Assembly: GCA_029776995.1 (NCBI GenBank)
Contig: JAKOTZ010000017.1
Coordinates: forward strand, 27,341-91,340
Direction: 5' to 3'
Length of the DNA stretch: 64,000 nucleotides
DNA from: Candidatus Hydrogenedentota bacterium
GTDB taxonomy: Bacteria > Hydrogenedentota > Hydrogenedentia > Hydrogenedentales > CAITNO01
The notes below the pieces were generated by a model. The model saw nothing but the letters and a program-made list of their open reading frames with translations. It did not search any database and had not been told where the DNA came from. A program made the position numbers and the translations under genes. Positions 516 through 61,889 of the stretch are shown piece by piece (the stretch's first letter is position 1; every line of letters starts with the position of its first letter).

Positions 516-667
516 GGGAATATCCTGCCTCCGCCCGCGGCGGAATTAACAAACTGTGTTTACTCTTTTGCGTTATAATAGCCCAATACCGGCGCGGGCT
601 GCAAAAACGGGTACGCGGCGCGCCATAAATGTATGCGGGCTTTGGGTCCCAACGGAAGGAGCAACCG

Positions 668-1915: not shown

Positions 1916-1925
1916 CGGGACCGGC

Positions 1926-3028: not shown

Positions 3029-3102
3029 GCGCGTCTTCCTCCTTTTATACGGCGCATCAGGCAGATCACCCGACGGTCCTGCCGACACCCTGCCTGTGCC
3101 GG

Positions 3103-9360: not shown

Positions 9361-11521
9361 GCGGATCCTTTTCGACGCGAAAACGCTGAGCAGATGGACA
9401 CCTGGAGACGATCCGGCTGAACCGGAATGGCAGGCGGTAAACGGGAAGATTTATCCCGGCGAAGACACCATCCGGATATCCGCCTTCTTCGAGAACGTGC
9501 GGCGCATCGATATTATCGACCGGAATGAACCCCGCTTCTGGTTTGCGATTTCCGCTCCGCGTACCGCGCCGCTTCAGGTCGATGTGTCGCGGTATGCCGT
9601 ACTGGAAGTGGAGACCAGGAACGTAAACCTGCGCGGCCTGTTTCGGGTGGCCTGTTTTTATCCGGGCGGGGAATTCCTGTTTACCCTGCCGATCGATCAG
9701 GAGTGGCATACGTTCGGCATGCTGGTCGGACCGGAATTTCCCCGGACCGTCAACGCCATATCCCTGCGGTGCTACGGAGCTTGGCGGGAAACCGGCACGG
9801 TTGAAGTGCGTTCCGTCAGTTTTCGCGCGCTGGAACCTGAAGAACAGGAGCGGCTGAACTCCCTGACGGAGCACTGCGCGGCGGAGCGGAACCATCGGCC
9901 ATATCCGGATTCTTTTTTCCCCTTTGGCGTCTTTATGGACGCGGAAGCCGCCCAGCGGCTGGGCGATATCATGGATATTTCTTTCCATGACTACTGGCGG
10001 CTGGCGCTTGAAGACATTGCCCGCCACCACCATAACTGTATCGTCCTGGAAAATGCAGAAAAAATGGGCCCTGAACTGGGGGCCCACCTCGTGGAACAGG
10101 CAAAGGGTTACGGGATCCGGATTATTCCATCATTTTCCTCCCTGCCGGATCCCGGTGCTCCCGACACTAAAAATTACATCGAGTCGCTTGTGGGCCCTTT
10201 CCGCCATCATCCAACTGTCGCGGCATGGGCGGTTTCCAGATTTCCCGAGGAGAACTCGTGCCCCTGGTGGAAAGGCACCCATGACATTTTTCATCAGCTG
10301 GACGTTACGCAGCCGCTGCTCTGTTACAGCGAGCATCCCGGCAACGTGGAGCTGCTGTCCCGAAACACGCCTGTTTTCTGGGTAAATTTCTTCAAGTCCG
10401 GTGTGCCGTGGGACGTGCGGCATATGCTCACGACCCATTACCGTCAGAAAGGAAACCGGTCGCTGTGGCTTACGGCCCCGGCGTTCACCCGGGCCAGCGG
10501 CGCGCCGGTGTGGAGCTCCTGCCCCGCCATGCGCATTATGCTGAATCTCGCGCTGGCGTGCGGCGTGGACGGATGGTTTACCCACGCTTATCACCATCTG
10601 CCTTCCTGGCTCCAGGGTACGATGGAACGGTCCCTCACAGGACCATTTCAGACTTTCAGTGATCTGTGGACGGAACTGGGGAACCGCCTGGAGCGGCTTA
10701 CTTCGCTGGCGCCGGTTTTCCAGGCGGTTTCTCCCACGGATACGCAGCCTCACGGTTTTATATGCGAAAGCCGAAAACATCCACAGTCCTCGCTGGATCC
10801 CGATATTCCGCCCGCGTCCGTGTACTGGCTGCAGGGCGACGGGTTACAGCTGTGCCACGTGGTGAACAATGACCTGATGCAGGTCACCTCGGTCACCCTG
10901 CATTTTCCCGAAACAGCCGAGGCAACCATGGCTGTTTATGACCTGACCCATTTTGTCCGGAACCGTACCTGGATCCCCGTCCGGCGGACCAGGCAGCTTG
11001 AAATGTTTCCGGGACAGGGGCAGGTCTTTCTGATCGCGTCCCATGACACCGCTACGGCGTGGCGGGACCTCATCGCCAGCCAGATCCTTGCCGCGGACCA
11101 GCGGCAGGTGCTGGTTGACCTGGACCTCGCCCGGCATTACATCGTGAACCTGGAAGAAACGGAAGAAGTGCTTACGGGCGTCTCGGTCAACCCGCTCGCC
11201 GACCTGGTCCGGGTACACACCGCCCGGGAAAAACTGATCAACATGATCTATGCCTGCCCTGACCTGTACGCGGCGCGGAGCGCGCTGATCGAAGCCAGCT
11301 CGCTGCTTTGCGCCTGCGATGAGGCCCTGGCAAGGCTGCATGCAGCGGGGCGCGCGGAAGCGGCGCATGATTTCGGGATGCGCGCGCTGCCCTTCGCGCG
11401 CCAGTTGACCTTTTACCGACTTCTGTTGCGCCGGGGCGAAGGGAAGGCTATCCTCGCGGAATGCCGCCAGATGAGCCAGTCCATTTACACCCTGCTAAGC
11501 GATATCTGGGCCCGTTTCTGA
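9287..11521 (+). CDS. Large cytoplasmic hypothetical protein (744 aa), possibly a TIM-barrel glycoside-hydrolase-like protein.
   Basis: A long ORF with no signal peptide. It overlaps the upstream gene by 74 nt, so the true start may be internal. No confident motif. Confidence 0.45.
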   Translation: MAYRAIGILNYLRENLNRPPESSTERILFDAKTLSRWTPGDDPAEPEWQAVNGKIYPGEDTIRISAFFENVRRIDIIDRNEPRFWFAISAPRTAPLQVDVSRYAVLEVETRNVNLRGLFRVACFYPGGEFLFTLPIDQEWHTFGMLVGPEFPRTVNAISLRCYGAWRETGTVEVRSVSFRALEPEEQERLNSLTEHCAAERNHRPYPDSFFPFGVFMDAEAAQRLGDIMDISFHDYWRLALEDIARHHHNCIVLENAEKMGPELGAHLVEQAKGYGIRIIPSFSSLPDPGAPDTKNYIESLVGPFRHHPTVAAWAVSRFPEENSCPWWKGTHDIFHQLDVTQPLLCYSEHPGNVELLSRNTPVFWVNFFKSGVPWDVRHMLTTHYRQKGNRSLWLTAPAFTRASGAPVWSSCPAMRIMLNLALACGVDGWFTHAYHHLPSWLQGTMERSLTGPFQTFSDLWTELGNRLERLTSLAPVFQAVSPTDTQPHGFICESRKHPQSSLDPDIPPASVYWLQGDGLQLCHVVNNDLMQVTSVTLHFPETAEATMAVYDLTHFVRNRTWIPVRRTRQLEMFPGQGQVFLIASHDTATAWRDLIASQILAADQRQVLVDLDLARHYIVNLEETEEVLTGVSVNPLADLVRVHTAREKLINMIYACPDLYAARSALIEASSLLCACDEALARLHAAGRAEAAHDFGMRALPFARQLTFYRLLLRRGEGKAILAECRQMSQSIYTLLSDIWARF

Positions 11522-13718: not shown

Positions 13719-14941
13719 ACGGCGAATCCCGGCTGTCTTTACACCCCCTGCTGGCGGACCCCGAAGGGTTGCGCGCCCGGTTGCGTCCCGTCGCGGGTCG
13801 GCACCGGAAAGAACGGATATTCTATTTTCTGTGCTTGGCTGTTTCAGGGATGGCCGTGCTGATCCTGGCCGCGCTGTTCGGCGCCATCACGCTGATGGGA
13901 ATCGCCACCTTTTCCTGGAAATTCCTCACGGCGCCTCCTTCTCCGGCAGCTGAAGAATCCGGCATGTACCCGGCCATCATGGGCAGCGTGTGGGTAGTCC
14001 TGCTGGCCATGCTGACCGCCCTGCCCCTGGGAACGGCATCCGCAATCCTTCTCGAAGAATACCGGCCCCGATCCCCCTTGATGCGCCGGATCCAGCATAT
14101 TATTGAACTGAACATAACAAACCTTGCCGGGGTGCCGTCGGTTGTGTACGGCATTCTTGGCCTGACTGTTTTTGTGTATATGTTCCCTCTGTTTGACGGT
14201 ACCGGCAAACCGGTTCGCGAGTGGGGCGTCGTGTACTACGACCAGTTTTACAACGAAGCCGATACTGTACTCCTGGTTCCGGTAAACACACTGGACGCTC
14301 CGCCTGTCCAACCCAAAACAGGCATGCTCGCCTTCGACGCCGATTTTCATCCCGTAAACCTTCAGGTAATCGGGGAAGATGACCCGTGGCCCGAGGATCC
14401 GGAACGCGCCCGCGTAACCCTGCGGGAAACAGACATGGGCGGGCGGATCAGCGAAAAAACCTGGTACTATTTCTGCCTGCCCTTTGGGCGCGGGGTGCTG
14501 GCCGGCGCCCTGACGCTTGGACTCGTGATCCTGCCCACCATTATCATCGTCGCCCGCGAAGCGCTGCGGGCCGTGCCGGATTCGCTTCGGGAGGGCGCTT
14601 TTGCCCTGGGCGCTTCCCGATGGCAGACCATTTACCGCGTTACCCTGCCGGCGGCGCTGCCCGGCATCATGACCGGGTCCATTCTGGCCATGAGCCGCGC
14701 CATCGGCGAGGCCGCGCCGCTCATCATGATTTCCGGAATCGTATTCCTGACCAATCCGCCCAGGCATCTTATGGATGATTTCACGGTCATGCCCCTCCAG
14801 ATCTTCAACTGGGCCCAGCGGCCGCAAACGGATTTCCATGCCCTGGCGGCCTCAGGTATCATTGTCCTGCTGGCTATTCTGCTGGTGTTCAACAGCATTG
14901 CCCTGCTTATCCGCCAGCGGTACCAGAAGCCTCTTTCATAA
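13715..14941 (+). CDS. pstA: Phosphate ABC transporter permease PstA.
   Basis: The ATG at 13715 overlaps the pstC TGA (ATGA). ALRAVPDSLREGAFALGASRWQTIYRVTLP permease signature. Confidence 0.9.
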   Translation: MNGESRLSLHPLLADPEGLRARLRPVAGRHRKERIFYFLCLAVSGMAVLILAALFGAITLMGIATFSWKFLTAPPSPAAEESGMYPAIMGSVWVVLLAMLTALPLGTASAILLEEYRPRSPLMRRIQHIIELNITNLAGVPSVVYGILGLTVFVYMFPLFDGTGKPVREWGVVYYDQFYNEADTVLLVPVNTLDAPPVQPKTGMLAFDADFHPVNLQVIGEDDPWPEDPERARVTLRETDMGGRISEKTWYYFCLPFGRGVLAGALTLGLVILPTIIIVAREALRAVPDSLREGAFALGASRWQTIYRVTLPAALPGIMTGSILAMSRAIGEAAPLIMISGIVFLTNPPRHLMDDFTVMPLQIFNWAQRPQTDFHALAASGIIVLLAILLVFNSIALLIRQRYQKPLS

Positions 14942-47998: not shown

Positions 47999-49924
47999 TT
48001 AAGGGCTTTTCGCCGCGCCCCCTTGAAAAAGGAACAGCGCGCCGGCCGGCGCCCATCCCGGCAGGGCAGGTATTTCTTCGGCCAGTTCTTCCCCGAAGCG
48101 TATCAGCGCCTCGCCCATTTCTTTTTCGCCACTTTCACGTAGCACTGTTCCGCCAAAAACCAGGATATCCGGCCAGTATCCTTCCGTCCGGCTCCCCACG
48201 GTTTCCAGCCATAATCTGGCCTCCTCTCCTCGGCCCATGGACGATGCCACCCGCGCCTGGCCGAAATGGGCCGCGTCCCGCGCGGCCCGCGGCAGCGGCC
48301 ATTCCCACGGCATGCGGCCCCGCACCGCCGGATGGCTGAACCAGCCGGGGGTAACCGCCAGCAGCCGGTCCATGCCGGCCACCCGCAGCGCAACGGTTCC
48401 CGGGGCCGACGCGGGATCCGTTGACTCATCCAGCAGCTGGACCAGCGCCACCCGCCACGCGGCATCTGACCACCCGGACCGTGCCATCGCGGCCGCCCCT
48501 GACTGCTCTGCCTCCCACGCCTTCGCCGCGGACGCCGCTGCAGCCGCCGCCTCCCGGTTCAGCCAGGCGAAACGGAACCCGTTCACCAACAGCACCAGCG
48601 CCGCAGTCCCCACGATCAGATATCCGCCCAGGAAAAAGCACGCGCCAGGGCGCCGCATCGTATTCCCATTGCAGGCCCCCGGTTCCTGTGCTGCCGTACA
48701 CGCCATTCCGCACGCCGCCATCGGAAAAAACAGGATCCACCTTACCGGCAGGATCAGCAGCAGGGACAGCACGACCACCCGCCATCCTCCCATGTCCGCA
48801 TCGGTTACTCCGGTCCGCAAACCTCTGGTTCCGCTCCGCCAATTTCGCCACAGCAGCACAACCAGCCAGACGAAAATCGCAATCCCCGCGGCTCCAGATT
48901 CCGTAACAGTCCCGCCCAGCCAGGGCAGGGACATCGGCAATGACCAGGGTTGATCCGACCGATATATCAGATTTTCCGCTCCCCCGGGTCCCGCTCCCAT
49001 CCATCCCGAATGCGCCAGCCGTGATACTCCCGACCGGAAGACCTTTGCCAAATCCTCCCAACCGCCCAAAATCAGCCCGTGTCCAAACCACAGGATTGCC
49101 GCCATGAGCAGCACTGGCGCCCCTATATACCGGTACGGATTCCCGGCTTCCGGGGAGCGCTTCCGGAACAGCCGCCACGCGCCCAAACCCGTCGGCACGC
49201 CCAGCGCCACCAGGGCGCCAAGGGGCGCCACAGCCGCCGTCAGTAGCGCTAAAACGGTCAGTCGGATCAGTTCCGCCGGGTGAACCGCGGACGCCCTGAT
49301 GAAACGCGCCACATAAAAAGCCAATACACAGCTCAGGGGAAATGCCAGCGGATCCGATCCGTCCGCCGCGGCGGCAAACCCCGCCAGCGGCAGCAGCAGG
49401 CGCGCCACGGCGGCAGCTGCGCAGGAAACCGCAAGTGCCCGAAATACACGCGTGATCGACCGCCGGGGAGATGCCGATGAGGCCAGAAGCAGATATCCCG
49501 CCACACCCACGGCAGCCGATCCCGCCAGGGAGATCAGGGCATCCCGTTCTCTGTCCGGATCATGCAGCCCGGGGGATATCAGGCCGGCCGCCAGCAGTAT
49601 TGCCGTTGGGATACACAAACCGGCAATGCCCGGAAAAAAATAAAGGGTTCTCCGCATGTGCCAGACCGCCTGGGCTGATCCCAGCGCGACACAGACCGCC
49701 CCGAACACCGCTACCAGTGATAAACCGGGGGGCACCATTTCCAGCAGTGGAACAGTCCCGGGCGCCAGGCGGACGCTGATTTCCCGCAGAAAACGCGTCG
49801 GTACAACCGCAAGATCCCTCCACGGCGCCAGCGCCAGCGTCAGGGTAAAAAAGAACACCCCTGCATCCGCAATGGCACAGGGGCGGAAAAGCCGGGCCGG
49901 CACTTTACCCAGCCGGCGGATCAT
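47999..49924 (-). CDS. Polytopic membrane protein, O-antigen-ligase/Wzy-like, with a C-terminal soluble TPR-like domain.
   Basis: About 12 transmembrane segments with a large periplasmic loop. Ala-rich C-terminal repeats. Confidence 0.5.
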   Translation of the reverse strand: MIRRLGKVPARLFRPCAIADAGVFFFTLTLALAPWRDLAVVPTRFLREISVRLAPGTVPLLEMVPPGLSLVAVFGAVCVALGSAQAVWHMRRTLYFFPGIAGLCIPTAILLAAGLISPGLHDPDRERDALISLAGSAAVGVAGYLLLASSASPRRSITRVFRALAVSCAAAAVARLLLPLAGFAAAADGSDPLAFPLSCVLAFYVARFIRASAVHPAELIRLTVLALLTAAVAPLGALVALGVPTGLGAWRLFRKRSPEAGNPYRYIGAPVLLMAAILWFGHGLILGGWEDLAKVFRSGVSRLAHSGWMGAGPGGAENLIYRSDQPWSLPMSLPWLGGTVTESGAAGIAIFVWLVVLLWRNWRSGTRGLRTGVTDADMGGWRVVVLSLLLILPVRWILFFPMAACGMACTAAQEPGACNGNTMRRPGACFFLGGYLIVGTAALVLLVNGFRFAWLNREAAAAAASAAKAWEAEQSGAAAMARSGWSDAAWRVALVQLLDESTDPASAPGTVALRVAGMDRLLAVTPGWFSHPAVRGRMPWEWPLPRAARDAAHFGQARVASSMGRGEEARLWLETVGSRTEGYWPDILVFGGTVLRESGEKEMGEALIRFGEELAEEIPALPGWAPAGALFLFQGGAAKSP

Positions 49925-49927
49925 GGA

Positions 49928-50452
49928 TCAGGACCCCGATACTTCCCGGGATTCCTCCACCGGCACCGCGGCGGGAGCTGCCTGCGAGGCGTCCGATCCG
50001 CCGCTCAGTTTGGCCATGATGGCATCTGCCAGTTTCTGGGTGGCCCGCTCATCTTTCAGTTTGCGGTCGTGCCACCCCGGATCCGTAAGCAGGGTTACCC
50101 CATAAACCTGGCGTACCGCTTCAATGTGAATATTGGTCTCTTTTTCGCCTGCCGGAGTCAGGTTGATGGTGTATTTGATCCGGTGCGGCTGCACGAACAG
50201 CAGACGGTACGTATCTCCATAAGCGACGAACAGCCCCCGTTTGTCCCGGGTATAAATTTCCAGGTTCTGTTCCCGCAGGGCCGCTTTAACCGCCTGCCAG
50301 GCTTCCTCAAAAGGCACATCCGCCCGCAGGTCCCGTGTTACCGCGAAACCGGTCGTATCACGGGCGCTGCGCGCGCAGGCTGGCATCAGCGCCACGGCCG
50401 CCAGCATTACCGACAATACCGCAAACCACGTAAACGCGCGTGTCCGGGCCAT
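49928..50452 (-). CDS. Lipoprotein of unknown function.
   Basis: GGAGGG Shine-Dalgarno. Signal peptide with a lipobox-like LMPACA motif. Confidence 0.55.
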   Translation of the reverse strand: MARTRAFTWFAVLSVMLAAVALMPACARSARDTTGFAVTRDLRADVPFEEAWQAVKAALREQNLEIYTRDKRGLFVAYGDTYRLLFVQPHRIKYTINLTPAGEKETNIHIEAVRQVYGVTLLTDPGWHDRKLKDERATQKLADAIMAKLSGGSDASQAAPAAVPVEESREVSGS

Positions 50453-50684
50453 AGTCTTGCCCTCCGTTTCACCGCATTTTATCACATCCCCTTAACGGGT
50501 ACCAATAAACGGAAATGCCGGTTCCGCCGATTCTAACAATAAATGCAACCCCTGCTGAGTTTTGGTGTGAATAAGGTGGCGGCCAAGACGCGGGAGGAAT
50601 TGAAAAGTAGAAGATAGCAAATTTAGAATTACCATTCAGGCCAGCTGGCATTACGACTTCATTTTCTTACAGAAAGGATATAGA

Positions 50685-53600
50685 GTGAGTAACGACTTGT
50701 CCTCTTTGTGTGGGCAGCGGATTTTGCTCGCCGGCCACTACGCTGAACCTGTGGTTTTGGAGGAAGCGCGGTTGATTGGTTCCAATGATATGCCAGTCTA
50801 TGAATGCCGTGTTCGTCTTTCCAATGGATCCTTAGAGGAGGTTGTTATTTCCGCGGAAGAGGCCGAGGCTATCTTCAGCAAAAAACATGGCTCTGCCGAA
50901 AAGGATTTGGTGGACGCCGAAAAGCTTCGGCTTCTGATCGAATCGGCTCGAATCCGTTTAGCCTATGCGTATGACCAACAGTTTGCGGTGAGTCTTTCTG
51001 GCATCCGGACGTTGCCGCATCAGATTGAAGCGGTGTACCAGGCAATGCTTCCTCAGCCCAGGTTGCGTTTCTTGCTGGCAGATGATCCTGGAGCCGGAAA
51101 GACAATCATGGCCGGGCTCCTGATAAAGGAGCTAAAGTTGCGTGAGGCGATTGATCGCATCCTCATCCTATGTCCCGCGCCGCTCACCGTGCAGTGGCAG
51201 GACGAGATGCTTCGCTGGTTCAGCGAGCCTTTTGACATTATCTTTTCCGCTGTCGACCAACAGCAATTGACCAATCCATGGCAGAGGTCTTCACAGATCA
51301 TTGCGTCCATTGACTACGCCAAGCAGGAAGACGTGCGCGAGCGTGTCTGGCAACAGCGGTGGGATCTCGTCATCATCGACGAGGCCCACAAGTGTTCGGC
51401 CAGGACCGCCACAGGTGGACAGAATCGAGAATCCAAAGTCGCGACAACGAAGCGCTATGACCTGGCCTTGCGTCTCACATCTCAGGCAGACCACGTTCTC
51501 CTCCTGACGGCCACACCCCACCATGGGGACGAAGACAAATTTGCTCATTTCCTGCGACTCATTGATCCGGATCTTTTTCCGGAACCGCACCGGCTGGCAA
51601 AACAGGCCGGTGAAATTCGGCAGAATGTCTTTCGACTGGGAAAAGATTCACCATGGTGCTTGCGGCGTCTCAAGGAAGATCTTCGGGATGCGAACGGCAA
51701 GCGGCTTTTTCCTGATCGTCATGCCAGGACTGTCGCGTTTACGCTGAATAGCGACGAATACGCTCTCTACAAAAGCGTAACCGCATACATCAATGAGTTT
51801 ATCCCGCAACAGACCGGGCAAAAGCGTTCTTCTGCGGCGTTGACCCGAACTGTCCTGCAACGAAGGCTGGTGAGCTCCACCTGCGCGATACACGAGTCCC
51901 TCAAACGGCGTCTGAAAAAACAGGAAGGCCTTCTGGAAGAACTTGAGGGGCTCACGCCGGACCAGCGCGCCAAACGATTGGCCGCTTTGCAGGGTCGACG
52001 GTCTGATGCCGAACAGGATGAAGACGATCTTGACGATGCGGAACGGGATCAATTGGTTGATGAGTATACGACTGCGCAGGAACTTGAACAGTTGCGTGCG
52101 GAGATCTCCGCCCTCAGGGAACTTGTCGAGCAGGCGCGAAGGGTTCGTGAAAACGCGAATGATTCCAAACTGGCCGCATTGAAGAAATGCCTCAATGATG
52201 CCCAGTTTCAGGACCTGAAGGATGGTCGGGGAAAGCTTCTGATCTTTACGGAACACCGGGATACCCTTGGCTACGTGCGCGGGCATCTGGAACGGTGGGG
52301 GTTCAGCACCTGCGAAATCCATGGCGGCATGAACCCCCATGAACGCAAACGCACTCAGGAGGTCTTTCGGACCAGTGCGCAGGTGTGCGTCGCCACGGAA
52401 GCTGCCGGCGAAGGGATCAACCTCCAGTTCTGCCACCTGATGATCAATTATGATATGCCCTGGAACCCGACCCGGCTGGAGCAGCGATTAGGGCGTATTC
52501 ATCGCATTGGCCAGGACCGGGATGTCTATGTTTTCAACTTCGTGGCCACGGATTCCGAGGACGGACAGCCCATTGTGGAAGGCCGGATTCTTCATCGACT
52601 TCTGGAAAAACTTGACCAGATGAACGAGGCCCTTGAAGGTCGCGTTTTCGATGTGATCGGCGAAGTACTGTCCCTGAACGACGTAAACCTCCCGGATATG
52701 CTCCGTGATGCAGCTTATGACCCCAGGCGGCTCGACGAATACCTCGACCAGATCGACCGTATCGACCCAGTAAAGCTTAAAGAATACGAAAAAGCCACGG
52801 GTATTGCGCTCGCGCGCAGCCATGTGGATTTTTCCGCGTTTCAGCAACGGAACCTCGAGGTTGAGGAAAAGCGGCTGATGCCTCGATATGTCGAGGCGCA
52901 ATTCATTGCGGCCGCCCGTGAAGTTGGCCTTCGGGTCGAGCCGAGAGCCGACGGGCTGTGGCGCATCGAACATGTCATTGCGGATCTTCGTTCGGAAAGG
53001 CTGCGCTCTGTTCAAAAAATCGGAAAACCGGAATCCGCCTATCGTAAGATCACTTTTCACAAACAGCACCTCGAGCAGGACGCCCACCTGGATGCCGTGC
53101 TGGTAGGTCCTGGCCATCCGCTCTATGCGGCGGTGGATGAGAAGCTCAATGAGCGTCTGGAAACGTTGGTCGGAGGTATTGGTTTCTTCATCGATCCCTT
53201 GTGCAGAGAACCTTATCGTATCCATTTCCTTGAGATTTCAATTCTCGGCACGGACTCGAAAGGAAACAATGTGCCGCTTTATGGTGAACTCCTTGCTGTG
53301 CGGGAAGAAATTGGGAAGTGCGAAGTCATCCCAAGCGACATCCTCCTCAACCTGGCGGCACATCCGCGCCCACCGAGAGAAATCGATACGAAAACCCAGG
53401 CTGCGAGCGTGTCACAAGCCATCGATTTTTTAAAAAGCACCTATCAGCTCGAGTGCCGCGCCCGTTGTCAGCGCGAGCGACAGCATTTCGCGCAGATTTG
53501 CCGGGAGTATCTGGAAAAGTCGTTCAAAGCCCGGATCGACCACGCCCAGCGAAGGGCGATGGAGCTTGCCGCCGAAGCAGTTTCCAAACCGGAGTTCAAG

Positions 53601-54212
53601 TTGGCTGCGGACGAGGCCAAAAAAGACGTAGATGAACTTGAGCGCGCACGCCAGGAAAGGCTCACCGGTTTAAAACAGCTTGAAACTGCCAGAACCGGGC
53701 CAATTAAACATGTGGGGACGGCCTTTGTACTCCCTCCAGATGCCGACATGCCAGCCCAGCTCGCCGATCTGGCCGAGGATCTCGATCCGAATATCCGCCG
53801 GCAGGTCGAGATCGCCGCGGAAGACAGGGTCGTTGAAGCGCTGGTCGCCGAGGGCTTTCCCCCTGACCGCATTGAGCGGGTCGGCCATCTGCATTTGGGA
53901 TTCGACATCCGGGCCCAAAGGATCGCCGATGAAAATACCGGCGAAATTTTTGTGAAAAGAATCGAGGTCAAAGGACGCAGGCGGGGACAGCCGGTAAGGC
54001 TTACCACCAACGAGTGGTACAAGGCCCAGCAACTGGCCGAAACCTACTGGCTGTACGTGGTGTGGGACCCCCTGGGAGATACTCCGGAAATCGTGCGCAT
54101 ACATAACCCTGTTGCCAAACTCGACCATGCCAAACGGGAGATCGTGGCGGCGAGATTCTATGAAATCTCTGCCGAGGCGGTGCAGAATGCTGGATTGCGG
54201 GAGATGAGGTGA
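50685..54212 (+). CDS. SNF2/Swi2-family helicase with a C-terminal DUF3883-like (restriction-endonuclease-fold-like) domain. It is the helicase component of a helicase-methylase-ATPase defence module.
   Basis: GTG start after AAAGGA. Helicase motifs I LADDPGAGKT, II VIIDEAHK, III LLLTATP, and VI QRLGRIHRIGQ. A coiled-coil middle region. The C-terminal ~100 aa (VKRIEVKGRRRGQPVRLTTNEWYKAQQLAETYWLYVVWD) resemble DUF3883. Confidence 0.85.
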   Translation: MSNDLSSLCGQRILLAGHYAEPVVLEEARLIGSNDMPVYECRVRLSNGSLEEVVISAEEAEAIFSKKHGSAEKDLVDAEKLRLLIESARIRLAYAYDQQFAVSLSGIRTLPHQIEAVYQAMLPQPRLRFLLADDPGAGKTIMAGLLIKELKLREAIDRILILCPAPLTVQWQDEMLRWFSEPFDIIFSAVDQQQLTNPWQRSSQIIASIDYAKQEDVRERVWQQRWDLVIIDEAHKCSARTATGGQNRESKVATTKRYDLALRLTSQADHVLLLTATPHHGDEDKFAHFLRLIDPDLFPEPHRLAKQAGEIRQNVFRLGKDSPWCLRRLKEDLRDANGKRLFPDRHARTVAFTLNSDEYALYKSVTAYINEFIPQQTGQKRSSAALTRTVLQRRLVSSTCAIHESLKRRLKKQEGLLEELEGLTPDQRAKRLAALQGRRSDAEQDEDDLDDAERDQLVDEYTTAQELEQLRAEISALRELVEQARRVRENANDSKLAALKKCLNDAQFQDLKDGRGKLLIFTEHRDTLGYVRGHLERWGFSTCEIHGGMNPHERKRTQEVFRTSAQVCVATEAAGEGINLQFCHLMINYDMPWNPTRLEQRLGRIHRIGQDRDVYVFNFVATDSEDGQPIVEGRILHRLLEKLDQMNEALEGRVFDVIGEVLSLNDVNLPDMLRDAAYDPRRLDEYLDQIDRIDPVKLKEYEKATGIALARSHVDFSAFQQRNLEVEEKRLMPRYVEAQFIAAAREVGLRVEPRADGLWRIEHVIADLRSERLRSVQKIGKPESAYRKITFHKQHLEQDAHLDAVLVGPGHPLYAAVDEKLNERLETLVGGIGFFIDPLCREPYRIHFLEISILGTDSKGNNVPLYGELLAVREEIGKCEVIPSDILLNLAAHPRPPREIDTKTQAASVSQAIDFLKSTYQLECRARCQRERQHFAQICREYLEKSFKARIDHAQRRAMELAAEAVSKPEFKLAADEAKKDVDELERARQERLTGLKQLETARTGPIKHVGTAFVLPPDADMPAQLADLAEDLDPNIRRQVEIAAEDRVVEALVAEGFPPDRIERVGHLHLGFDIRAQRIADENTGEIFVKRIEVKGRRRGQPVRLTTNEWYKAQQLAETYWLYVVWDPLGDTPEIVRIHNPVAKLDHAKREIVAARFYEISAEAVQNAGLREMR

Positions 54213-54215
54213 ACA

Positions 54216-54806
54216 GTGGAGCGAAGTGAACTTACCGAACTGCACTACATTACGCCTATTGCCAATTTGCCATCCATTCTCCGGCATGGCATTCTGTCTC
54301 ATAACCGCGCCAAACGTATTGAGCATCAATCTGTGGCAATGAATGAGATTCAAGACCGACGGGCTAAAGTGGTCGTTCCCGGCGGGAAAAAACTCCATGA
54401 TTATGTAAATTTGTATGTCTGCGCCAGAAACCCGATGATGTACAAATGTCAGGCGCAGTTCAAGGAAATTTGCGTTCTGAAAATCAGCACTGATGTAGTG
54501 GATCTACCTGGGGTAGTGATTACCGACGGTAATGCTTCCGGAGACTATGTGCGGTTTTCGGCAGCGCCGAAGGGGTTGGCGATTGTGGATCGGGATTGGA
54601 CCTTTGCGGATGATTGGCGAGACCCCGATCAGATTCAGTATTATCATAAAAAGGCTGCCAAGTGTGCCGAAGTGTTAGTGCCGGATCAGGTAAATGCGGA
54701 TTACATCATGGGCGCCTACGTCGTGTGTCAGGAATCCCAAGAGACGATCAAGGATTTGGTCCAGCATCTTTTTGTGGTAATAAATGGCCATCTTTTTTTT
54801 AGGTAG
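54216..54806 (+). CDS. darT: DarT-family (DUF4433) DNA ADP-ribosyltransferase toxin.
   Basis: GTG start 4 nt after the helicase stop. N-terminal LHYITPIANLPSILRHGILSHNR and C-terminal AEVLVPDQV signatures of DarT. GC content is about 48%. Confidence 0.85.
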   Translation: MERSELTELHYITPIANLPSILRHGILSHNRAKRIEHQSVAMNEIQDRRAKVVVPGGKKLHDYVNLYVCARNPMMYKCQAQFKEICVLKISTDVVDLPGVVITDGNASGDYVRFSAAPKGLAIVDRDWTFADDWRDPDQIQYYHKKAAKCAEVLVPDQVNADYIMGAYVVCQESQETIKDLVQHLFVVINGHLFFR

Positions 54807-54816
54807 GAAGAAAGGT

Positions 54817-55935
54817 ATGGTTAAGGTTATTATGGGCAATATATTTGAATCCCGGGCGCAAACCCTGATCAACACAGTGAACTGCGTTGGAGTTATGGGG
54901 AAAGGTGTGGCCCTGGAATTTAAAAAGCGCTTTCCCGAAATGTTTGAAGATTACGTCCGGCGGTGCGAGGCCAAGCAGGTCCATCTCGGTCGTCCCTACC
55001 TTTTCAAGCAGATGTTTCCGCCCTGGATTCTCAACTTTCCGACTAAAGACCATTGGCGGTCTGTTGCGCGCCTTCAGGATATCGAGGAGGGATTGCGTTA
55101 CCTCCAGCAACACTATACGGAGTGGGGCATCACCTCTCTGGCTGTACCACCCCTGGGGTGTGGTCATGGCCAACTCGAATGGCGTGTGGTCGGACCGACT
55201 TTGTACAGGCTCCTGATGGATTTCAATATTCCAGTTGAGCTTTATGCGCCGTTCGGCACGCCCCATGAGGAACTCCAGCTTTCATTTCTGGACAAGTCAC
55301 AAGCAGCGGAATCTCAGAAAGCGGCTCCATATAACATTGATCCCGCATGGGTAGCCGTTGTGGAAGTGCTCAAACGCATCGAGGAGGAGCCGTTTCATAG
55401 GCCTGTCGGAAGAACGACATTTCAGAAGATCGTCTATTTTGTAAACGAATGCGGTATTCCAACCGGCTTGACATACCAGAAGGGAAGCTACGGTCCTTAC
55501 GCACCTGCCCTAAAGGAGCTACTCACCGCCCTGGTGAACAACGGCCTTGTGCACGAGAAGAAACTTGGGCGCATGTTTGCCATCCAGGTCGGTCACACCT
55601 TTCCCGACGCCCAAAAAGCTTATGAACAACAGATTAAGGAGTGGGATCCGATCATCAACAAAGTTGCCGATCTTTTTATGCGGGTGAATACCCAGCAGGC
55701 CGAGGTCGCCGCAACGGTGTATTTTGCCGCCCAAGAGGCAAAGACCAGATCGGAAGAGATGCCCACGGAGAAAGATGTCCTCGATGCCGTCATGAAGTGG
55801 AAGCAAAAGCGCAGACCGCCTCTGAACGAAAAAAATGTCGCTCTGACAGTGCGCAACCTGAACATGTTGAGCTGGCTCGGGGTCAAGGTAAGCGACGAGT
55901 TACCCATCACCGAAGAGGATGTCCTGCATGTCTGA
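54817..55935 (+). CDS. darG: DarG-family macrodomain antitoxin (ADP-ribosyl-DNA glycohydrolase).
   Basis: GAAGAAAGG Shine-Dalgarno. N-terminal TARG1/DarG-type macrodomain (NTVNCVGVMGKGVALEFKKRFP...PPLGCGHG). A C-terminal ~200-aa domain. Confidence 0.85.
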   Translation: MVKVIMGNIFESRAQTLINTVNCVGVMGKGVALEFKKRFPEMFEDYVRRCEAKQVHLGRPYLFKQMFPPWILNFPTKDHWRSVARLQDIEEGLRYLQQHYTEWGITSLAVPPLGCGHGQLEWRVVGPTLYRLLMDFNIPVELYAPFGTPHEELQLSFLDKSQAAESQKAAPYNIDPAWVAVVEVLKRIEEEPFHRPVGRTTFQKIVYFVNECGIPTGLTYQKGSYGPYAPALKELLTALVNNGLVHEKKLGRMFAIQVGHTFPDAQKAYEQQIKEWDPIINKVADLFMRVNTQQAEVAATVYFAAQEAKTRSEEMPTEKDVLDAVMKWKQKRRPPLNEKNVALTVRNLNMLSWLGVKVSDELPITEEDVLHV

Positions 55936-58900
55936 TGACCGCAGGCTTATAGAAGATTTCCTGCCCATCCAGGCCATCAGCGCGGAGGCATCGCGGGAGA
56001 AGTCTATCCGAAAAGGGAACATCTCGACGCTTCACCGCTGGTGGGCGCGGCGGCCGCTGGTGGCCTGCCGCGCCGCCGTGTATGGCGCGCTGGTCCCGGC
56101 GTCGCGGTTCGTGTCGGAGAATGGCCCGGACAACAAAAAGCAAAGCCTGGGCAGGGCCAATGCGGCCAGGTTCATCGAGCGGCTCTGCAAGTATCCGGGC
56201 AATCCGACCGTCATCAAGGAAGCCCAAAGGCACATTCTCGAAGCTCACGCTGAAAGGTTGACTGAAGCGGCCGGCAGGAAGGTCACCGCCGAGGACATCG
56301 AAGCAGGCCGCGCCCCCCGCCCCAGGGTGCTCGACATGTTCGCCGGCGGAGGGTCCATTCCGCTGGAAGCGCTGCGGCTGGGGTGCGAGGCCTACGCCCT
56401 CGACCTTAACCCCGTGGCCCACATCATTGAACTGTGCACGTTGGTGTATCCCCAAAAATACGGCAATCCGGATCCCGGCGCCCGCGGGATGGCCGGCCCC
56501 CAGAATGCAAAGGGCGAAACCACCTGGGGCGGCCTGGCCGACGAGGTCCGCTACTGGGGCGAATGGGTGCTCAGGAAGGTCAAGGCCGAGATCGGCGACC
56601 TTTACCCGCTCATTCCCGATCCCGAATACAAGGGGGAAAGACCTCCGGTTCAAGCCGAAATGTGGCAGTCCTCTGAAAGGGAAACGGTACCGCCGGGGTA
56701 CCTTGTGCCTGTTGCCTATCTCTGGACGCGGACTGTCCGCTGCAAGAACCCGACGTGCGGAGCCACGGTGCCGCTTGTGCGGCAGACCTGGCTCTGCAAA
56801 AAGAAGGGCCGCTATGTGGCCCTTCGGATGGTTGCGCCCAACGGGGAAAAGTCGGCGCGTTTCGAAGTGGCGGAAAGCAGCGTCGAACAGGGGCTGGGCT
56901 TCGATCCGGCGGGCTTTTCCAAGGGCGGCAACGCCACCTGCCCGTTTTGCGGGACCGTGGCGGACAGCGATTATGTGAAGGCCGAAGGATGCGCCAAACG
57001 CATGGGTCAGCAGCTGATGGCTGTGGTCTGCATCCGGCCGGGCAAAAAAGGAAAGGTCTATCTATCCGCCGAAGAGGCTACCAGCCTGCTCAAAAGCACA
57101 GGTAAGATGCCTGTGCCGCCGGAAGAGGAGATAAAACAGCGCATCGAAGCACTCTGCCAGAGAACAGGACTGACCGTGCCGGCGGAGATGTTGCCCCGGA
57201 GATCAAACAACCCGGATGATTTTCGGGGCACGCTGGGTATGGGCGTGCAGCCCTATGGTATTACCACCTTTTGCGATCTCTTCACGCCCCGCCAGCTACT
57301 CTGCCTGCTAACCTTCACTGCAGCGGTAAGAGAAGCAGGAGTCCAGATGTACCGTTTGTACGGTAACCGATTGAATAGCCAAGACAACAGCTATTCCTCA
57401 GTAAGCGCTTTAAATGATCAGGTCAAAGCCGTGCTGACTTACTTGGGTACTGCGGTAAATCGGATGGCAGACTTCAATTCTTCATTATGCGTTCACAATT
57501 ACTTTGGTAGTAGCAGAATTGCGCACACATTCAGGCGACATGCACTCCAGATGGTATGGGACTTTGTGGAGGCAAATCCTTTCAACTATGGTAGTGGAGG
57601 TTGGGGGATTAACAATATCGTGGAGGTTCTGGAATCGCCTGATACGATCACCTATACCGCAGCAATGGTTACCCGCGGCTCCGCCGCAGCCCTTCCGTGG
57701 TCTGATGGTTTATTCGATGCTATCATTACGGACCCTCCCTACTACGACAACGTACCCTATGCCGAAATTTCTAACTTCTTTTACATTTGGCTTAAGCGCT
57801 CAGTGGGTCACCTTTATCCCGAACATTTCGCCAACGACGGCCCTCCCAAGAAACAAGAGGCTATTGCCGATGCGGTTCGTCATGGTGGCAACAAAAAAAA
57901 GGCACGGCAAGTGTACGAGCAAATGATGGCTCAGTCCTTCGCTGAGGCGAACCGGGTGCTGAAGCCAGGCGGCCAAATGGTGGTGGTCTATGCGCATAAA
58001 ACCACCTTGGGATGGTCAACCCTTGTGGGTGCACTTCAGCAGGCGGGCTTTGTTGTAATGGAAGCATGGCCTCTCGATACGGAAAAACCCGGTCGCCTTC
58101 GGGCTCAGAATGCAGCCGCCCTTGCCTCCAGCATCTTTTTAGTTGCACGTAAGCGTGCGGGGACGCAGACCGGCTCCTATGAAGAAGAAGTACGCCCTGC
58201 ACTGGATCGGATTGTCCGCGAACGGGTGGACTCCTTCTGGAAGATGGGCATCACGGGTGCCGATCTTGTCATTGCTGCCGTGGGCGCGGGCCTTCGGGCC
58301 TATACCCGATTTGCGCGGGTGGAGTACGCCAACGGCGAAGAAGTCCCGGCGGAGAAATTTCTGGCCGAGGTGGAAGGCGTTGTACTGGAGACGCTTCTGG
58401 AGAAGATCTTCGGGGTAACCGGAAGCGGCGTGGCAGCGGTGGACGGCCCGAGCCGGTTTTATCTGCTCTGGCGCCACACCTACGGCGCGGATGAAATGGA
58501 TGCCGGCGAAGCCATCGTCTTTACCTACGGACAGAACGTGGAGCTGGACGGGCCAAACGGCCTATCTTCCGGAAGCTGCGCCATGGTTGAGAAAAAGAAA
58601 GGAAAATACCGGCTGCGCGATTTTTCCGAACGGGGCAGTGACGCCAGGCTGGGCATGCCAGGACATACCGGCAGGCCGGCCCCGCTGATGGATATCCTGC
58701 ACCGCATCCTGTGGCTCATGGAAAACGAGCCCCGCAAACTCAACGACTTTCTCGACGAGGTACGGCCGGATCGGGAACGGCTGCGCCTGGTAGCCCAGGT
58801 TCTGGCCGGAACAGCGCTGGAGGGCGCGGAGGCTGGAAGCCAGCCTCACCCCAATATGATTACCACTCCCGCGGAAGGCGCGGCCCTGAAGAAACTTGTC

Positions 58901-58960
58901 GCCAACTGGGGGACGCTGATCGACCAGCGGCTGGCCGCCAGAGAAGGGCGCCTGTTTTAA
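55919..58960 (+). CDS. DUF1156-family DNA methyltransferase with a Zn-ribbon (COG1743-like).
   Basis: N-terminal DUF1156 block (IEDFLPIQAISAEASREKSIRKGNISTLHRWWARRPL). Motif I-like DMFAGGGSIPLEA. A Zn-ribbon (CKNPTCG...CPFCG). Motif IV ITDPPYYDNVPY. It overlaps the darG stop by 17 nt. Confidence 0.85.
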   Translation: MSCMSDDRRLIEDFLPIQAISAEASREKSIRKGNISTLHRWWARRPLVACRAAVYGALVPASRFVSENGPDNKKQSLGRANAARFIERLCKYPGNPTVIKEAQRHILEAHAERLTEAAGRKVTAEDIEAGRAPRPRVLDMFAGGGSIPLEALRLGCEAYALDLNPVAHIIELCTLVYPQKYGNPDPGARGMAGPQNAKGETTWGGLADEVRYWGEWVLRKVKAEIGDLYPLIPDPEYKGERPPVQAEMWQSSERETVPPGYLVPVAYLWTRTVRCKNPTCGATVPLVRQTWLCKKKGRYVALRMVAPNGEKSARFEVAESSVEQGLGFDPAGFSKGGNATCPFCGTVADSDYVKAEGCAKRMGQQLMAVVCIRPGKKGKVYLSAEEATSLLKSTGKMPVPPEEEIKQRIEALCQRTGLTVPAEMLPRRSNNPDDFRGTLGMGVQPYGITTFCDLFTPRQLLCLLTFTAAVREAGVQMYRLYGNRLNSQDNSYSSVSALNDQVKAVLTYLGTAVNRMADFNSSLCVHNYFGSSRIAHTFRRHALQMVWDFVEANPFNYGSGGWGINNIVEVLESPDTITYTAAMVTRGSAAALPWSDGLFDAIITDPPYYDNVPYAEISNFFYIWLKRSVGHLYPEHFANDGPPKKQEAIADAVRHGGNKKKARQVYEQMMAQSFAEANRVLKPGGQMVVVYAHKTTLGWSTLVGALQQAGFVVMEAWPLDTEKPGRLRAQNAAALASSIFLVARKRAGTQTGSYEEEVRPALDRIVRERVDSFWKMGITGADLVIAAVGAGLRAYTRFARVEYANGEEVPAEKFLAEVEGVVLETLLEKIFGVTGSGVAAVDGPSRFYLLWRHTYGADEMDAGEAIVFTYGQNVELDGPNGLSSGSCAMVEKKKGKYRLRDFSERGSDARLGMPGHTGRPAPLMDILHRILWLMENEPRKLNDFLDEVRPDRERLRLVAQVLAGTALEGAEAGSQPHPNMITTPAEGAALKKLVANWGTLIDQRLAAREGRLF

Positions 58961-58985: not shown

Positions 58986-61889
58986 GTGAGCACATATACG
59001 CTTCGTCCCTGGACCGACCTGGTTAAGCTCCATCCGGACGTGGAATCCGGCAGCCTGACCGAGGCGGTCTTCGCCATTGATCTCGGGGCCATCGCCGCCA
59101 ATGATCCCAACGTGCCCGTAGTCAACCGGGACCCGGAAGCCTTCTTTCGGGCAACCTACCTTACGGCCGATCTGCGAAAACTGCTGGAAGAAGTGCTGGC
59201 ATCCCTCTCCGGCAAATCCGGTTACAACCGGGTATTGAAACTCCGGGTGCCCTTCGGAGGCGGGAAATCACACACCCTGGCGGCGCTGTTCCATGCCGCG
59301 CGAAAGCGCGAGGCGCTGGAATGCATTCCCGAGGCGGAAACATTCGCCCGGCCCGGCAATGTGGCCGTAGCCGTCTTTGACGGCGAGAAATTCGATGCCC
59401 GTAACGGCAAGACGCTGGATGACGGCCACGCGATCCAGACCATGTGGGGCTGGATCGCCTGGCAGATCGATCCCGAAAAAGCTTTCCCCCTGGTGGCCGA
59501 CCACGACAGGGACCGCGTGGCTCCCGGCGGCGACGTAATCCGTGAACTGCTCACCAAAGGCGCTGGCGGCAGGCCGGTTCTAATTCTGCTCGACGAAGTG
59601 CTTAAGTATATGGAGCGGGCCGCCGCGGTTGGCGTCCTGGATTCCACCCTCCAGCGGCAGGCCAAAGATTTTTTCCAGAACCTTACCGTCGAGGTTGCCG
59701 GAAGCGAGAAAGCGGCGCTCGTCTATTCCCTCACCTGGAGCGCCAGGGAGGCCCTGGGCAATGTCGGGCTGCTTGCCGAGATCGATAAGCTTGCTTCCCG
59801 GGTGGACCAGCTCAGGGAACCGGTTTCAGGGGATGAAATTCTTCCGATCCTTCAGCGGCGCCTGTTGGAACGCAACCCGGATCCGTCTTATACCGCAGCG
59901 GTCGCCCACGCCTATCAGGAGGTGATTACCGGCATGCAGCGCGCCCATGCTGAAACGCTATCCGAACGTCTCCAGGCCGATGAGGAAGGATGTAAGTTTC
60001 GGGATCGGGTTCGCACTGCATATCCGTTCCATCCGGCGCTCATCGACATCATGCGGGAACGCTGGACAGCGGTGGACGCCTTCCAGCGGACGCGCGGCGC
60101 CCTGCGTTTTCTTGCCTCCTGTATGCATTCCATCAGGAAGAACGGCGGCGCCAAAGCGCTTCTTGGTCCCGGAGATGTGCCACTGCATGATGTCGACGTT
60201 CGGGTGAAGATGCTCAAAGAACTGGGGGTACAGCATGATTATGATCCGGTTATTACGGCAGACATCTGCGGCCCGAACGCCCGCGCAAAACGGATTGATG
60301 ACCGTATGGCGCGTGAAAACCCTGAGCTTGCCAGCGTGAAACCAGCCACCCGCATTGCCACGGCTATCCTTTTATATTCGTTTGGCGGGTTAAGGCGTGA
60401 AAGCCGGGACAGCGACGAAACACTCCCGCCCGGGGTAACAGAGAAAGATCTGCTGGAAGCCTGCATAGGACCTGACCTCGATAACATAACGGCTACAGCT
60501 GTGTTGGCAGAACTTCGCAATACCTGCCTCTATCTGCACTACGATGGCGTCCGGTACTGCTTCAAGAAAGACCCGAATGTCACCAAGCTGATTGAGGACG
60601 CGGAGCAGACCATTGCCCGTGAGGACGTTCAGGCGAGCGGGTACGGTTTGGTACGCGACAAAATCAAGGAAATGCTGTACGCCCGCCTGGCCGGCACGCA
60701 CACAGCTATCGTGTGGCCGGCGAAAAGCCAGGACATCCCGGACGAGGATCCGCATTTCCTGGTCGCCTACCTGCCCCTGGAGTTTGCCGCTGAAGAAAAA
60801 TCGGAACAGGAACGGCAAGCCAAGGCGTACCTGACGAAATACGGCGACCGTCCCAGGCGATTCCGTAACGGGTTGGGGCTTGCTATACCGGACAAGAAAC
60901 AAATCGAAGGGCTTCGGCGTGCCGTCCGGTATCTCCTGTCTATCGATCGCGTGGAAGCAAAGAAACAGCAGCACCGGCTCACAAAAGACCAGATTGACCA
61001 GCTTCGGGAACGGAAAAACACCGAACAGGCAGCCGCCGAAGCATGCTTCCGGGACCTTTACACCGCTGTGTGGCTGCCCCGGGTCCAGGATGGCGAGATT
61101 GAACTGGAGAAAGTGGAACGGGGGGGGCGGCCGCTTCAGGCGACGGGCGTTCACCAGCGCATCATGGAGCTACTGACCAGTGTGGGGACACCGCGGATTC
61201 ACGGCTTGGTTACGCCGCAGAAAATCGTCGAGCGGGTGGGGCTTGGTAAATGCCTGCGCAAGGGTGAACCGCCGCTCATGGGCATCAGGGTATCCGATGT
61301 GCTGGAATCCTTTTTTCGGGATATTGCGCCGCCCCGGTTGGAATCCGCATCTGTCCTGCGCAAGGGGATCGCTCGCGGCGTATCGGAAAGAGTCTTCGCC
61401 TACGTTAGCGGGGAAAACCCGGTTCTTGGACCTGACAGGAAATACCAGATAAATCTCGACAAAGTGGTATTTGGCAAGGCGATTCCCGAAGACGAAATTG
61501 ATTTTGACTCTGGCTTTCTCATGCTGCCCGAAGCCATTCCGGAAGTATCGCCCAATCCGCCACAAGGCGGTTCCCCCAGTGGTTCAGGTGAGGACCTCCC
61601 GAAAAGGGTTAATGACAACGGCAATGGAAACGGACCGGGAACTGGTTCAGGGTCAGGTACAGGCATGGCCGGTCAAAAGAAGCAGATCGCCCTGACATTT
61701 GAGGCAACCAAAGCGCAGGTATATAAATCATTCAACGCTATTGCAAACCTAGCCGAGAAATCCGATGGGGCCAGGATTCGTATCCGAGTTGAGGGTACGT
61801 CATCTTCCGGCTTCGATCCGTCCTGGCTGCGAAATGCCGTGTATGAACCCTTGGACGAGGCCGATATCAAATGGACCGATGAGGCTTGA
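58986..61889 (+). CDS. DUF499-family (BrxC-like) P-loop ATPase.
   Basis: GGAGGG Shine-Dalgarno then GTG at 58986. Walker A PFGGGKSHT. Walker B ILLDEV. A Gly/Asn-rich linker (NDNGNGNGPGTGSGSGTG) precedes an ~80-aa C-terminal domain. Confidence 0.8.
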   Translation: MSTYTLRPWTDLVKLHPDVESGSLTEAVFAIDLGAIAANDPNVPVVNRDPEAFFRATYLTADLRKLLEEVLASLSGKSGYNRVLKLRVPFGGGKSHTLAALFHAARKREALECIPEAETFARPGNVAVAVFDGEKFDARNGKTLDDGHAIQTMWGWIAWQIDPEKAFPLVADHDRDRVAPGGDVIRELLTKGAGGRPVLILLDEVLKYMERAAAVGVLDSTLQRQAKDFFQNLTVEVAGSEKAALVYSLTWSAREALGNVGLLAEIDKLASRVDQLREPVSGDEILPILQRRLLERNPDPSYTAAVAHAYQEVITGMQRAHAETLSERLQADEEGCKFRDRVRTAYPFHPALIDIMRERWTAVDAFQRTRGALRFLASCMHSIRKNGGAKALLGPGDVPLHDVDVRVKMLKELGVQHDYDPVITADICGPNARAKRIDDRMARENPELASVKPATRIATAILLYSFGGLRRESRDSDETLPPGVTEKDLLEACIGPDLDNITATAVLAELRNTCLYLHYDGVRYCFKKDPNVTKLIEDAEQTIAREDVQASGYGLVRDKIKEMLYARLAGTHTAIVWPAKSQDIPDEDPHFLVAYLPLEFAAEEKSEQERQAKAYLTKYGDRPRRFRNGLGLAIPDKKQIEGLRRAVRYLLSIDRVEAKKQQHRLTKDQIDQLRERKNTEQAAAEACFRDLYTAVWLPRVQDGEIELEKVERGGRPLQATGVHQRIMELLTSVGTPRIHGLVTPQKIVERVGLGKCLRKGEPPLMGIRVSDVLESFFRDIAPPRLESASVLRKGIARGVSERVFAYVSGENPVLGPDRKYQINLDKVVFGKAIPEDEIDFDSGFLMLPEAIPEVSPNPPQGGSPSGSGEDLPKRVNDNGNGNGPGTGSGSGTGMAGQKKQIALTFEATKAQVYKSFNAIANLAEKSDGARIRIRVEGTSSSGFDPSWLRNAVYEPLDEADIKWTDEA

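Follow-up and report, generated by a model that had tools for sequence, protein, structure and literature searches.

How a low-GC toxin-antitoxin pair comes to sit within a defence operon is the question raised by positions 54216-55935 of a 64,000-nucleotide stretch (called the window here) of a contig from a Candidatus Hydrogenedentota metagenome-assembled genome. The segment encodes darT and darG, and it lies in a Hma (helicase-methylase-ATPase) defence operon, where five co-oriented, almost contiguous genes run on the + strand in the order hmaA-darT-darG-hmaB-hmaC. A first-pass annotation of the sequence had taken the low GC content of the pair for the mark of a recent insertion. Our analysis favours another history. 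With a probability of about 75%, the segment is a DarTG2-type toxin-antitoxin and abortive-infection module carried as an exchangeable embedded cargo cassette of the Hma operon, secondary in origin, in an old partnership with Hma in which it has co-diverged with HmaA.

The gene content and coordinates first proposed for darTG were correct, as judged from Pfam and PADLOC profile matches. DarT (54216..54806, +, 196 amino acids (aa), GTG start) is a predicted ADP-ribosyltransferase toxin of single-stranded DNA (ssDNA). It matches Pfam PF14487 with an E-value of 6.8e-42 over profile positions 1-189 of 201, and the PADLOC DarT profile with 2.4e-44. Its Glu152 sits in the sequence AEVLVP, which is the E-x-LV motif. 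The protein also matches PDB entries 7omu and 7omv, and Glu152 is aligned to an alanine of the 7omu chain; this is presumably the E-to-A catalytic mutant reported by Schuller et al. 2021. DarG (54817..55935, +, 372 aa from the ATG at 54817) is a predicted macrodomain antitoxin with a C-terminal domain. It matches Macro PF01661 (6.2e-16) and, over its full length, the PADLOC DarG profile (1.8e-95, profile positions 1-327 of 329), and its N-terminal domain is a macrodomain rather than NADAR. The alignment with the Thermus DarG macrodomain (PDB 5m31, 9e-35) shows that the GVMGKGVA loop and the lysine of FPTKDHW (Lys77) are kept; the catalytic role of this lysine is taken from the literature. A second in-frame ATG lies further upstream at 54784, and a start there would overlap darT. 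The 372-aa gene call is found on seven contigs. The DarT domain with its motif glutamate, the macrodomain with its lysine, the C-terminal DarG domain and the adjacent darT-darG order are all present. Since the DarT glutamate and the DarG GVMGKG loop and Lys77 are kept, the pair looks intact and of the macrodomain (DarTG2-like) type.

The host operon is equally well recognized. HmaA (50685..54212, +, 1175 aa) is a SNF2/DEAD helicase with a C-terminal NOV_C domain (PD-(D/E)xK-like), identified by Pfam Helicase_C, SNF2-rel_dom and NOV_C and by PADLOC HmaA (8.2e-189). HmaB (55928..58960, +, 1010 aa) is a DUF1156 DNA methyltransferase (PF06634; PADLOC HmaB 2.7e-138), and HmaC (58986..61889, +, 967 aa) is a DUF499 AAA+ ATPase (PF04465; PADLOC HmaC 1.8e-109). 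The start of hmaC at 58986 follows the gene call on identical contigs, and the mechanical open reading frame (ORF) begins at TTG 58965. The three genes are co-oriented in A-B-C order, and the Pfam and PADLOC matches agree.

Evidence that darTG is a cassette comes from the hmaA|hmaB junction of related operons (related loci and contigs are numbered with the prefix L). Four Hma loci are equally close to the window (HmaA 86%, HmaC 81-83% identity), and they differ in what the junction contains. L167, from a Syntrophales metagenome-assembled genome and in a different chromosomal neighbourhood, carries darTG (HmaA 86%, DarT 69%, DarG 84%, HmaB 71%, HmaC 82%). L171 and L012 have an HD_assoc_2 gene and a 181-aa gene at the same place, and L176 has a 244-aa gene, two Lactamase_B (metallo-beta-lactamase-fold) genes and a 102-aa gene. 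The junction of L174 (HmaA 80%) holds a protein kinase and a UvrD helicase, and it is empty in L008 (HmaA 77%, also from Hydrogenedentota) and in L009. In the HmaA tree, darTG loci are interspersed among loci with other cargo or with none. Only ~0.03-0.06 substitutions per site separate the HmaA proteins of L167, L176 and L012, yet their cargo is unlike, and L009 (empty) and L091 (darTG) are sisters with 100% bootstrap. Trees were calculated by neighbour-joining from few taxa, with a numpy implementation of the bootstrap. The pair thus shows the features of embedded cargo laid down by Payne et al. 2024 (bioRxiv 10.1101/2024.01.29.577857): it lies between hma genes in the same orientation, occurs outside Hma and is missing from other Hma loci. 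The second junction can be occupied as well; in L173 (4485-8179), a nucleotidyltransferase/HEPN pair of the MNT-HEPN toxin-antitoxin type lies between hmaB and hmaC, and hmaC is split into two ORFs.

Relatives of the pair are found in other settings too. The more distant DarG relatives adjoin type I, type III and type IIG restriction-modification systems (RM-I, RM-III, RM-IIG), a PglXI-like methylase (BREX-like), Dsr1 or PDC-S41. The DarTG clade of the window is mostly found within Hma. Among 80 metagenome loci anchored on DarG, the sole recurrent neighbours were a helicase resembling HmaA on the upstream side (10 loci) and a methylase resembling HmaB on the downstream side (7 loci). Three members of the clade (L178, L179 and L180, with DarG 80%, 80% and 76% identical to the window) stand alone among housekeeping genes, and beside these solo members the 3' end of hmaA and/or the 5' end of hmaB survives as a pseudogene remnant. 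In L178 (9124-9375, 11119-11330), darT is preceded by 234 nucleotides (nt) of an hmaA 3' end (blastn 1.7e-48, compared with the hmaA of L176), and darG is followed by ~190 nt of an hmaB 5' end (4e-22). L179 has an hmaB 5' remnant at 11100-11195 whose ATG is mutated (blastx 3e-6), and L180 an hmaA remnant at ~9250-9400 (1.4e-4). By these remnants, the solo copies appear to descend from Hma-embedded ancestors. In L172 a distant HmaA (65%) is paired with a close DarG (80%), both splits having 100% bootstrap, which supports a transfer of darTG between Hma lineages. The first-pass annotation had described darTG as a secondary insertion at an intergenic junction of a resident defence operon, and cargo polymorphism, solo copies, restriction-modification contexts and L172 all support a separable cargo module at that place, with an evolutionary mobility of its own.

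L172 also differs in the toxin itself. Between its hmaA and an intact DarG lie a DUF1828 gene and an N-terminally truncated DarT of 156 aa (9107-9990), which may be a decaying toxin with a retained antitoxin. In general, DarT diverges faster than DarG, mainly in its C-terminal half (69 versus 84% identity to L167, 60 versus 80% to L172). One protein of 521 aa (P0130) has both DarT and Macro domains and is 81% identical to the DarG of the window; the two genes may be fused there, or the gene call may have merged them.

Could darTG be an ancestral, integral part of a five-gene Hma subtype that was lost from the loci without it? The gene order and the overlap of darG with hmaB recur in loci whose HmaA is 65-87% identical, and the HmaA tree, read by parsimony, allows darTG to be placed at the base of the clade of the window. 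Given the hmaA and hmaB remnants beside the solo copies, embedding in Hma appears to be the ancestral state within the DarTG clade. Set against this, none of 79 Hma loci anchored on HmaB in GTDB species genomes across phyla contains darT or darG, and the junction hosts many unrelated cargoes, including those of Payne et al. The relatives embedded in RM-I, RM-III, RM-IIG and PglX-like systems or living alone, together with the transfer seen in L172, also speak for an independent module. Moreover, the HmaA helicase-nickase by itself defends against phage T4 in Halomonas (PMC11232893). We therefore consider an ancestral five-gene system improbable.

We next turn to composition, from which a recent entry had been proposed. 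For darT, the GC content is 47.9%, GC at third codon positions (GC3) is 0.523 and GC at positions 1+2 is 0.457; the corresponding values are 51.7-52.2%, 0.604-0.609 and 0.474-0.479 for darG and 50.7%, 0.579 and 0.471 for the two together. The flanking genes have 55.3%, 0.612 and 0.523 (hmaA), 59.0%, 0.677 and 0.546 (hmaB) and 58.4%, 0.652 and 0.549 (hmaC), or 57.4%, 0.645 and 0.539 when pooled, and the whole window has 60.4% GC. The dip is therefore real, but it is shallower than first stated: darTG had been put at 48%, its flanking genes at 58-63% and the genome at 65%. Of 1448 in-frame segments of equal length from hmaA, hmaB and hmaC, none falls to the total GC of darTG. The GC3 of darT is below that of hmaA (Fisher p = 0.019) and hmaB (6e-5), and it lies 3.3 standard deviations below 37 reference genes of the window. 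The GC3 of darG is indistinguishable from that of hmaA (p = 0.9). Third positions richer in A/T than in the neighbours, as claimed for the whole pair, are thus a property of darT and not of darG. When codon typicality was scored against the 37 other genes of the window (reference 0.676 +/- 0.059), the whole Hma island proved atypical (hmaA 0.551, darT 0.546, darG 0.526, hmaB 0.596, hmaC 0.602). Of the two steps expected at the borders of darTG, this index shows none at 54.2 kb and a moderate one at 55.9 kb. Composition changes most sharply where the 11.5-kb island begins and ends, at 50.4 and 62.0 kb (GC 55.9% inside, 61-69% outside).

Codon positions 1+2 contribute as much to the gap between darTG and hmaABC (47.1 versus 53.9%) as third positions do (57.9 versus 64.5%), and half of the gap is therefore due to protein composition. 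This raises the possibility that the gap has no evolutionary meaning and reflects only protein composition and local codon selection, for example for low translation of the toxin. In nearly all related loci, GC at positions 1+2 of DarT and DarG is below that of Hma. The GC3 of darT is below that of darG in most loci and averages 0.088 under that of hmaA (nine loci), and equally low GC is found in the variable core of hmaB and at the 3' end of hmaC. These observations account for the dip, but not for the exchange of cargo, and they complement the cassette reading on composition rather than compete with it over origin. As a full account of the locus, compositional heterogeneity is very unlikely.

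The two low-GC segments of the hma genes are themselves variable. The centre of hmaB (~57008-57728, aa 360-600) is hypervariable, with 23-60% identity in aa 361-600 versus 75-97% elsewhere by sliding identity, and 57308-57898 has a GC of 0.482 and a GC3 of 0.503, matching the dip of darT. The hypervariable core coincides with this GC dip, and L012 and L173 share another version of it. It looks like a swapped specificity or target-recognition module. In hmaC, aa 841-900 (window ~61506-61686) show 25-43% identity versus 65-95% around them, matching a GC dip at 61.4-62.0 kb. Within the Hma island, low GC accompanies fast-diverging segments generally.

Comparison across loci weighs against the view that darTG entered a settled Hma operon recently and that its low GC and A/T-rich third positions are an un-ameliorated trace of this. 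Such an entry would agree with the lowest GC of the operon, with the outlying GC3 of darT and with the quick turnover of junction cargo among close Hma relatives. However, in the eight darTG-bearing Hma loci where hmaA could be measured, darT is without exception lower in GC than hmaA, and darG is lower in seven and equal in L122. The GC3 of darG tracks that of hmaA over a range of 0.54-0.79 (nine loci, r = 0.90, mean difference 0.02), and in hosts of 39.5% GC (L181, L178) darTG is above the host. The pair does not have the profile of recently acquired foreign DNA, in that darG equals hmaA in GC3 and the dip is shared with relatives. As a family trait that recurs in this way, the dip is unable to date the insertion. 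The low GC is due to the amino-acid composition of DarT and DarG and to a darT-specific low GC3 that recurs in relatives; it is not a sign of recency.

Protein divergence tells the same story. The five-gene order is present on five contigs with identical DarG, and at least eight further Hma loci likewise have darTG between hmaA and hmaB. L181 has the complete order (HmaA/DarT/DarG/HmaB/HmaC 80/67/72/65/78%), and L087 and L091 have the hmaA-darT-darG-hmaB part, both contigs ending within hmaB. The darTG order is also seen in L172 (hmaC not recovered) and L173 (upstream end cut), in L094 and L089, which are partial contigs, and in two distant Hma loci, L122 and L138. Over seven loci, the pairwise identity of HmaA correlates with that of DarG (r = 0.84, or r = 0.96 when L172 is left out). 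The nearest DarG relative is 86% identical, no closer than the nearest sampled HmaA (86%) and similar to HmaC (83%). The first-pass annotation had named congruence of DarTG with the flanking genes as a result that would speak against its view; within the darTG-bearing Hma lineage the two are largely congruent, L172 excepted. With the dip recurring in relatives, darG following hmaA in GC3 and identities co-varying, the recent insertion deduced from GC is unsupported, and we regard it as unlikely. An old partnership of darTG and Hma is the reading we retain. Within it, darTG would occasionally have passed from one Hma lineage to another, given way to other cargo or outlasted a decaying Hma operon.

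How such cassettes might move is suggested by a few joints. In L174 (7654-7926) and L089 (2059-2379), an hmaB 5' fragment followed by an hmaA 3' fragment separates two stacked cargo cassettes, and in L174 the cargo between hmaB and hmaC contains, in addition, a 5' fragment of hmaC (14647-14778). The hmaB 5'/hmaA 3' joints are probably scars of cassette stacking. One tentative model, which we hold to be possible though short of an even chance, is that cassettes are exchanged between Hma loci via homology arms, namely ~90-250 nt at the end of hmaA and ~75-250 nt at the start of hmaB. If this is true, L178-L180 would be cassettes in transit or addictive relics that outlived Hma, the L174 and L089 joints would mark stacked cassettes, and Hma would be a recombination-driven, integron-like platform for defence genes, stabilised by toxin-antitoxin cargo. 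The remnants around solo copies fit two readings alike: cassettes moving with homology arms, or Hma decaying around an addictive toxin-antitoxin pair. An exchange mechanism based on arms is not proposed in Payne et al. 2024 or Liu et al. 2024 (PMC11232893). Recombination breakpoints around the cassette of the window were not apparent: along the hmaA 3' and hmaB 5' ends, sliding amino-acid identity does not group the loci by cargo type, and no tract boundary could therefore be placed. Direct or inverted repeats flanking darTG or the island amounted to short chance-level matches only. Plasmid records contained only distant relatives (DarG <= 32%, HmaB <= 48%) and are uninformative for the clade of the window. 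A tRNA-Gly(GCC) called by ARAGORN at 56031-56112 (+, 82 nt), inside the conserved DUF1156 region of hmaB, was considered as an integration site and rejected; it is probably a false positive in GC-rich coding sequence, having no Rfam match at E <= 1 and no tRNA call in hmaB of nine homologous loci.

The cassette is tightly joined to both neighbours, as had been noted at the outset. A 3-nt spacer separates the hmaA stop from the darT GTG, and a 10-nt spacer the darT stop from the darG ATG at 54817. The darG TGA (55933-55935) falls inside hmaB, with an overlap of 8 nt when hmaB starts at ATG 55928 and 17 nt when it starts at ATG 55919. This overlap (CATGTCTGA/ATGTCTGA) is kept in L167, L172 and L173, and in L181 with a TAA stop. 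The two protein termini encoded there are conserved and constrain it, and common descent accounts for its conservation as well as selection for co-expression does. An AT-rich spacer upstream of hmaA (50486-50684) houses the candidate operon promoter, a sigma-70-like site at 50600..50629 (+, TTGAAA-18-TAGAAT), which with a 10/12 consensus match is the best one upstream of hmaA. No promoter-like site was found on the + strand just upstream of darT or near 54.2 kb. The only + strand terminator-like sites were weak ones inside darG and hmaC, in smaller number than chance would give. The idea that an internal promoter or terminator sets darTG apart was therefore rejected.

From this layout, all five genes would be transcribed from the promoter region upstream of hmaA and translationally coupled across the short junctions, there being no credible internal terminator. 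By analogy with the published biochemistry of DarTG2, DarT would ADP-ribosylate thymidines in ssDNA and stall replication once infection upsets the balance of DarT and DarG. The DarG macrodomain would reverse the modification, and the C-terminal domain of DarG would restrain DarT. DarTG would in this way add a second, abortive layer to the DNA-targeting Hma system, and its addictive nature may stabilise the island.

Several points weigh against the old, exchangeable cassette that we favour. Bootstraps in the close DarG clade are low (12-74%), and the placement of the window DarG relative to L167 is for this reason not settled. The ancestral cargo of the Hma clade of the window is ambiguous between darTG and HD, since L010, L012 and L171 share the HD cargo. 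DarT is much less similar than DarG to its counterpart in L167, and part of the cassette may therefore have been replaced. Scars are uncommon: a test of 78 cargo-filled junctions recovered them in L174 and, as a weak case, in L034, with L089 coming from outside that test, and so the arms model rests on few cases. The promoter candidate at 50600-50629 is a bare consensus match at chance frequency, with six promoter-like sites found upstream of hmaA versus 6.3 expected, again by consensus match only. Transcription and activity of the five-gene operon are likewise inferred from sequence.

Some features of the surroundings concern the island as a whole. Related Hydrogenedentota contigs (L182-L186, 73-84% nt identity) are collinear with window positions 1-4136, and 47522 down to 35669 is inverted. 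This implies a large inversion with a breakpoint at ~47.5 kb, 3 kb from the Hma island; the comparison covers 10-kb flanks and stops short of the island position. Just past this breakpoint, where collinearity with the related contigs ends, two genes without a Pfam match (47999-50485, - strand; 641/560 aa and 185/174 aa) lie between a transketolase gene and the Hma island. The Hma-DarTG island of L181, with 50-55% GC throughout, sits in a host of 39.5% GC and adjoins D5_N/DUF5906 primase-like and nSTAND3 genes, and L171 has a tRNA-Asn gene 1.2 kb before hmaA. From these two contexts, the island may travel in one piece on mobile elements.

Both elements of the arrangement have precedents. Defence systems embedded in Hma operons were described by Payne et al. 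2024 under the term 'guilt-by-embedding', and hmaABC is an insertion hotspot for defence genes (Liu et al. 2024, PMC11232893). The present locus resembles these systems in having co-oriented, tightly packed defence cargo between hma genes that varies among related loci. It differs in the kind of cargo, the published cases being Septu, PARIS, Ppl, GmrSD/BrxU-like and ABC-ATPase systems. Neither the main texts of Payne et al. and Liu et al. nor the supplementary files of Payne et al. mention DarT or DarG as Hma cargo, the figures being outside this scope, and a prior listing is possible. DarTG is also already known from within a restriction-modification system: in the RptR island of enteropathogenic Escherichia coli (EPEC) E2348/69, DarTG2 is embedded between hsdS and hsdR of a type I system (PMC12255303). 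There, too, a macrodomain-type DarTG is co-oriented within a methylation-based defence operon, and the combined island is at a presumed recombination hotspot. The host there is hsdMSR (hsdS/hsdR) rather than Hma (hmaA/hmaB), the protein sequences are distant, and no gene for an RptR-like regulator precedes hmaA in the window. The embedding of defence genes in Hma and that of DarTG in type I restriction-modification are thus both already published. What the window adds is that DarTG joins the defence modules known to be nested in Hma operons, and that the DarTG-in-restriction-modification arrangement is extended to a second class of methylase-based system. This supports the idea that DarTG preferentially partners with DNA-modification defences. 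The locus also advises caution in composition-based dating, in that the GC dip of a toxin-antitoxin pair can be a stable family trait through long co-divergence. The remnants and scars give a lead on cassette movement and raise the question of addictive cargo outliving its host system.

At the level of the proteins, the closest structural references are the DarT and DarG of Thermus and Thermosipho (7omv, 7omu, 5m31), which act by thymidine-specific ADP-ribosylation of ssDNA. The pair of the window shares with them the E-x-LV glutamate, the PTK-HW lysine, the GVMGKG loop and the order of darT before darG. Identity to them is low (phmmer 1e-14 to 1e-15 for DarT, 9e-35 for the DarG macrodomain), and the likeness is one of sequence. 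A further parallel is the anticodon nuclease PrrC in EcoprrI, where a suicidal effector is likewise nested in a restriction-type operon (type I) and a published model has it act as a back-up on inhibition of the host system. A similar back-up activation of DarT is a possible benefit of the nesting in Hma. Unlike PrrC, DarT has an antitoxin of its own, and control by the Hma proteins is not indicated here.

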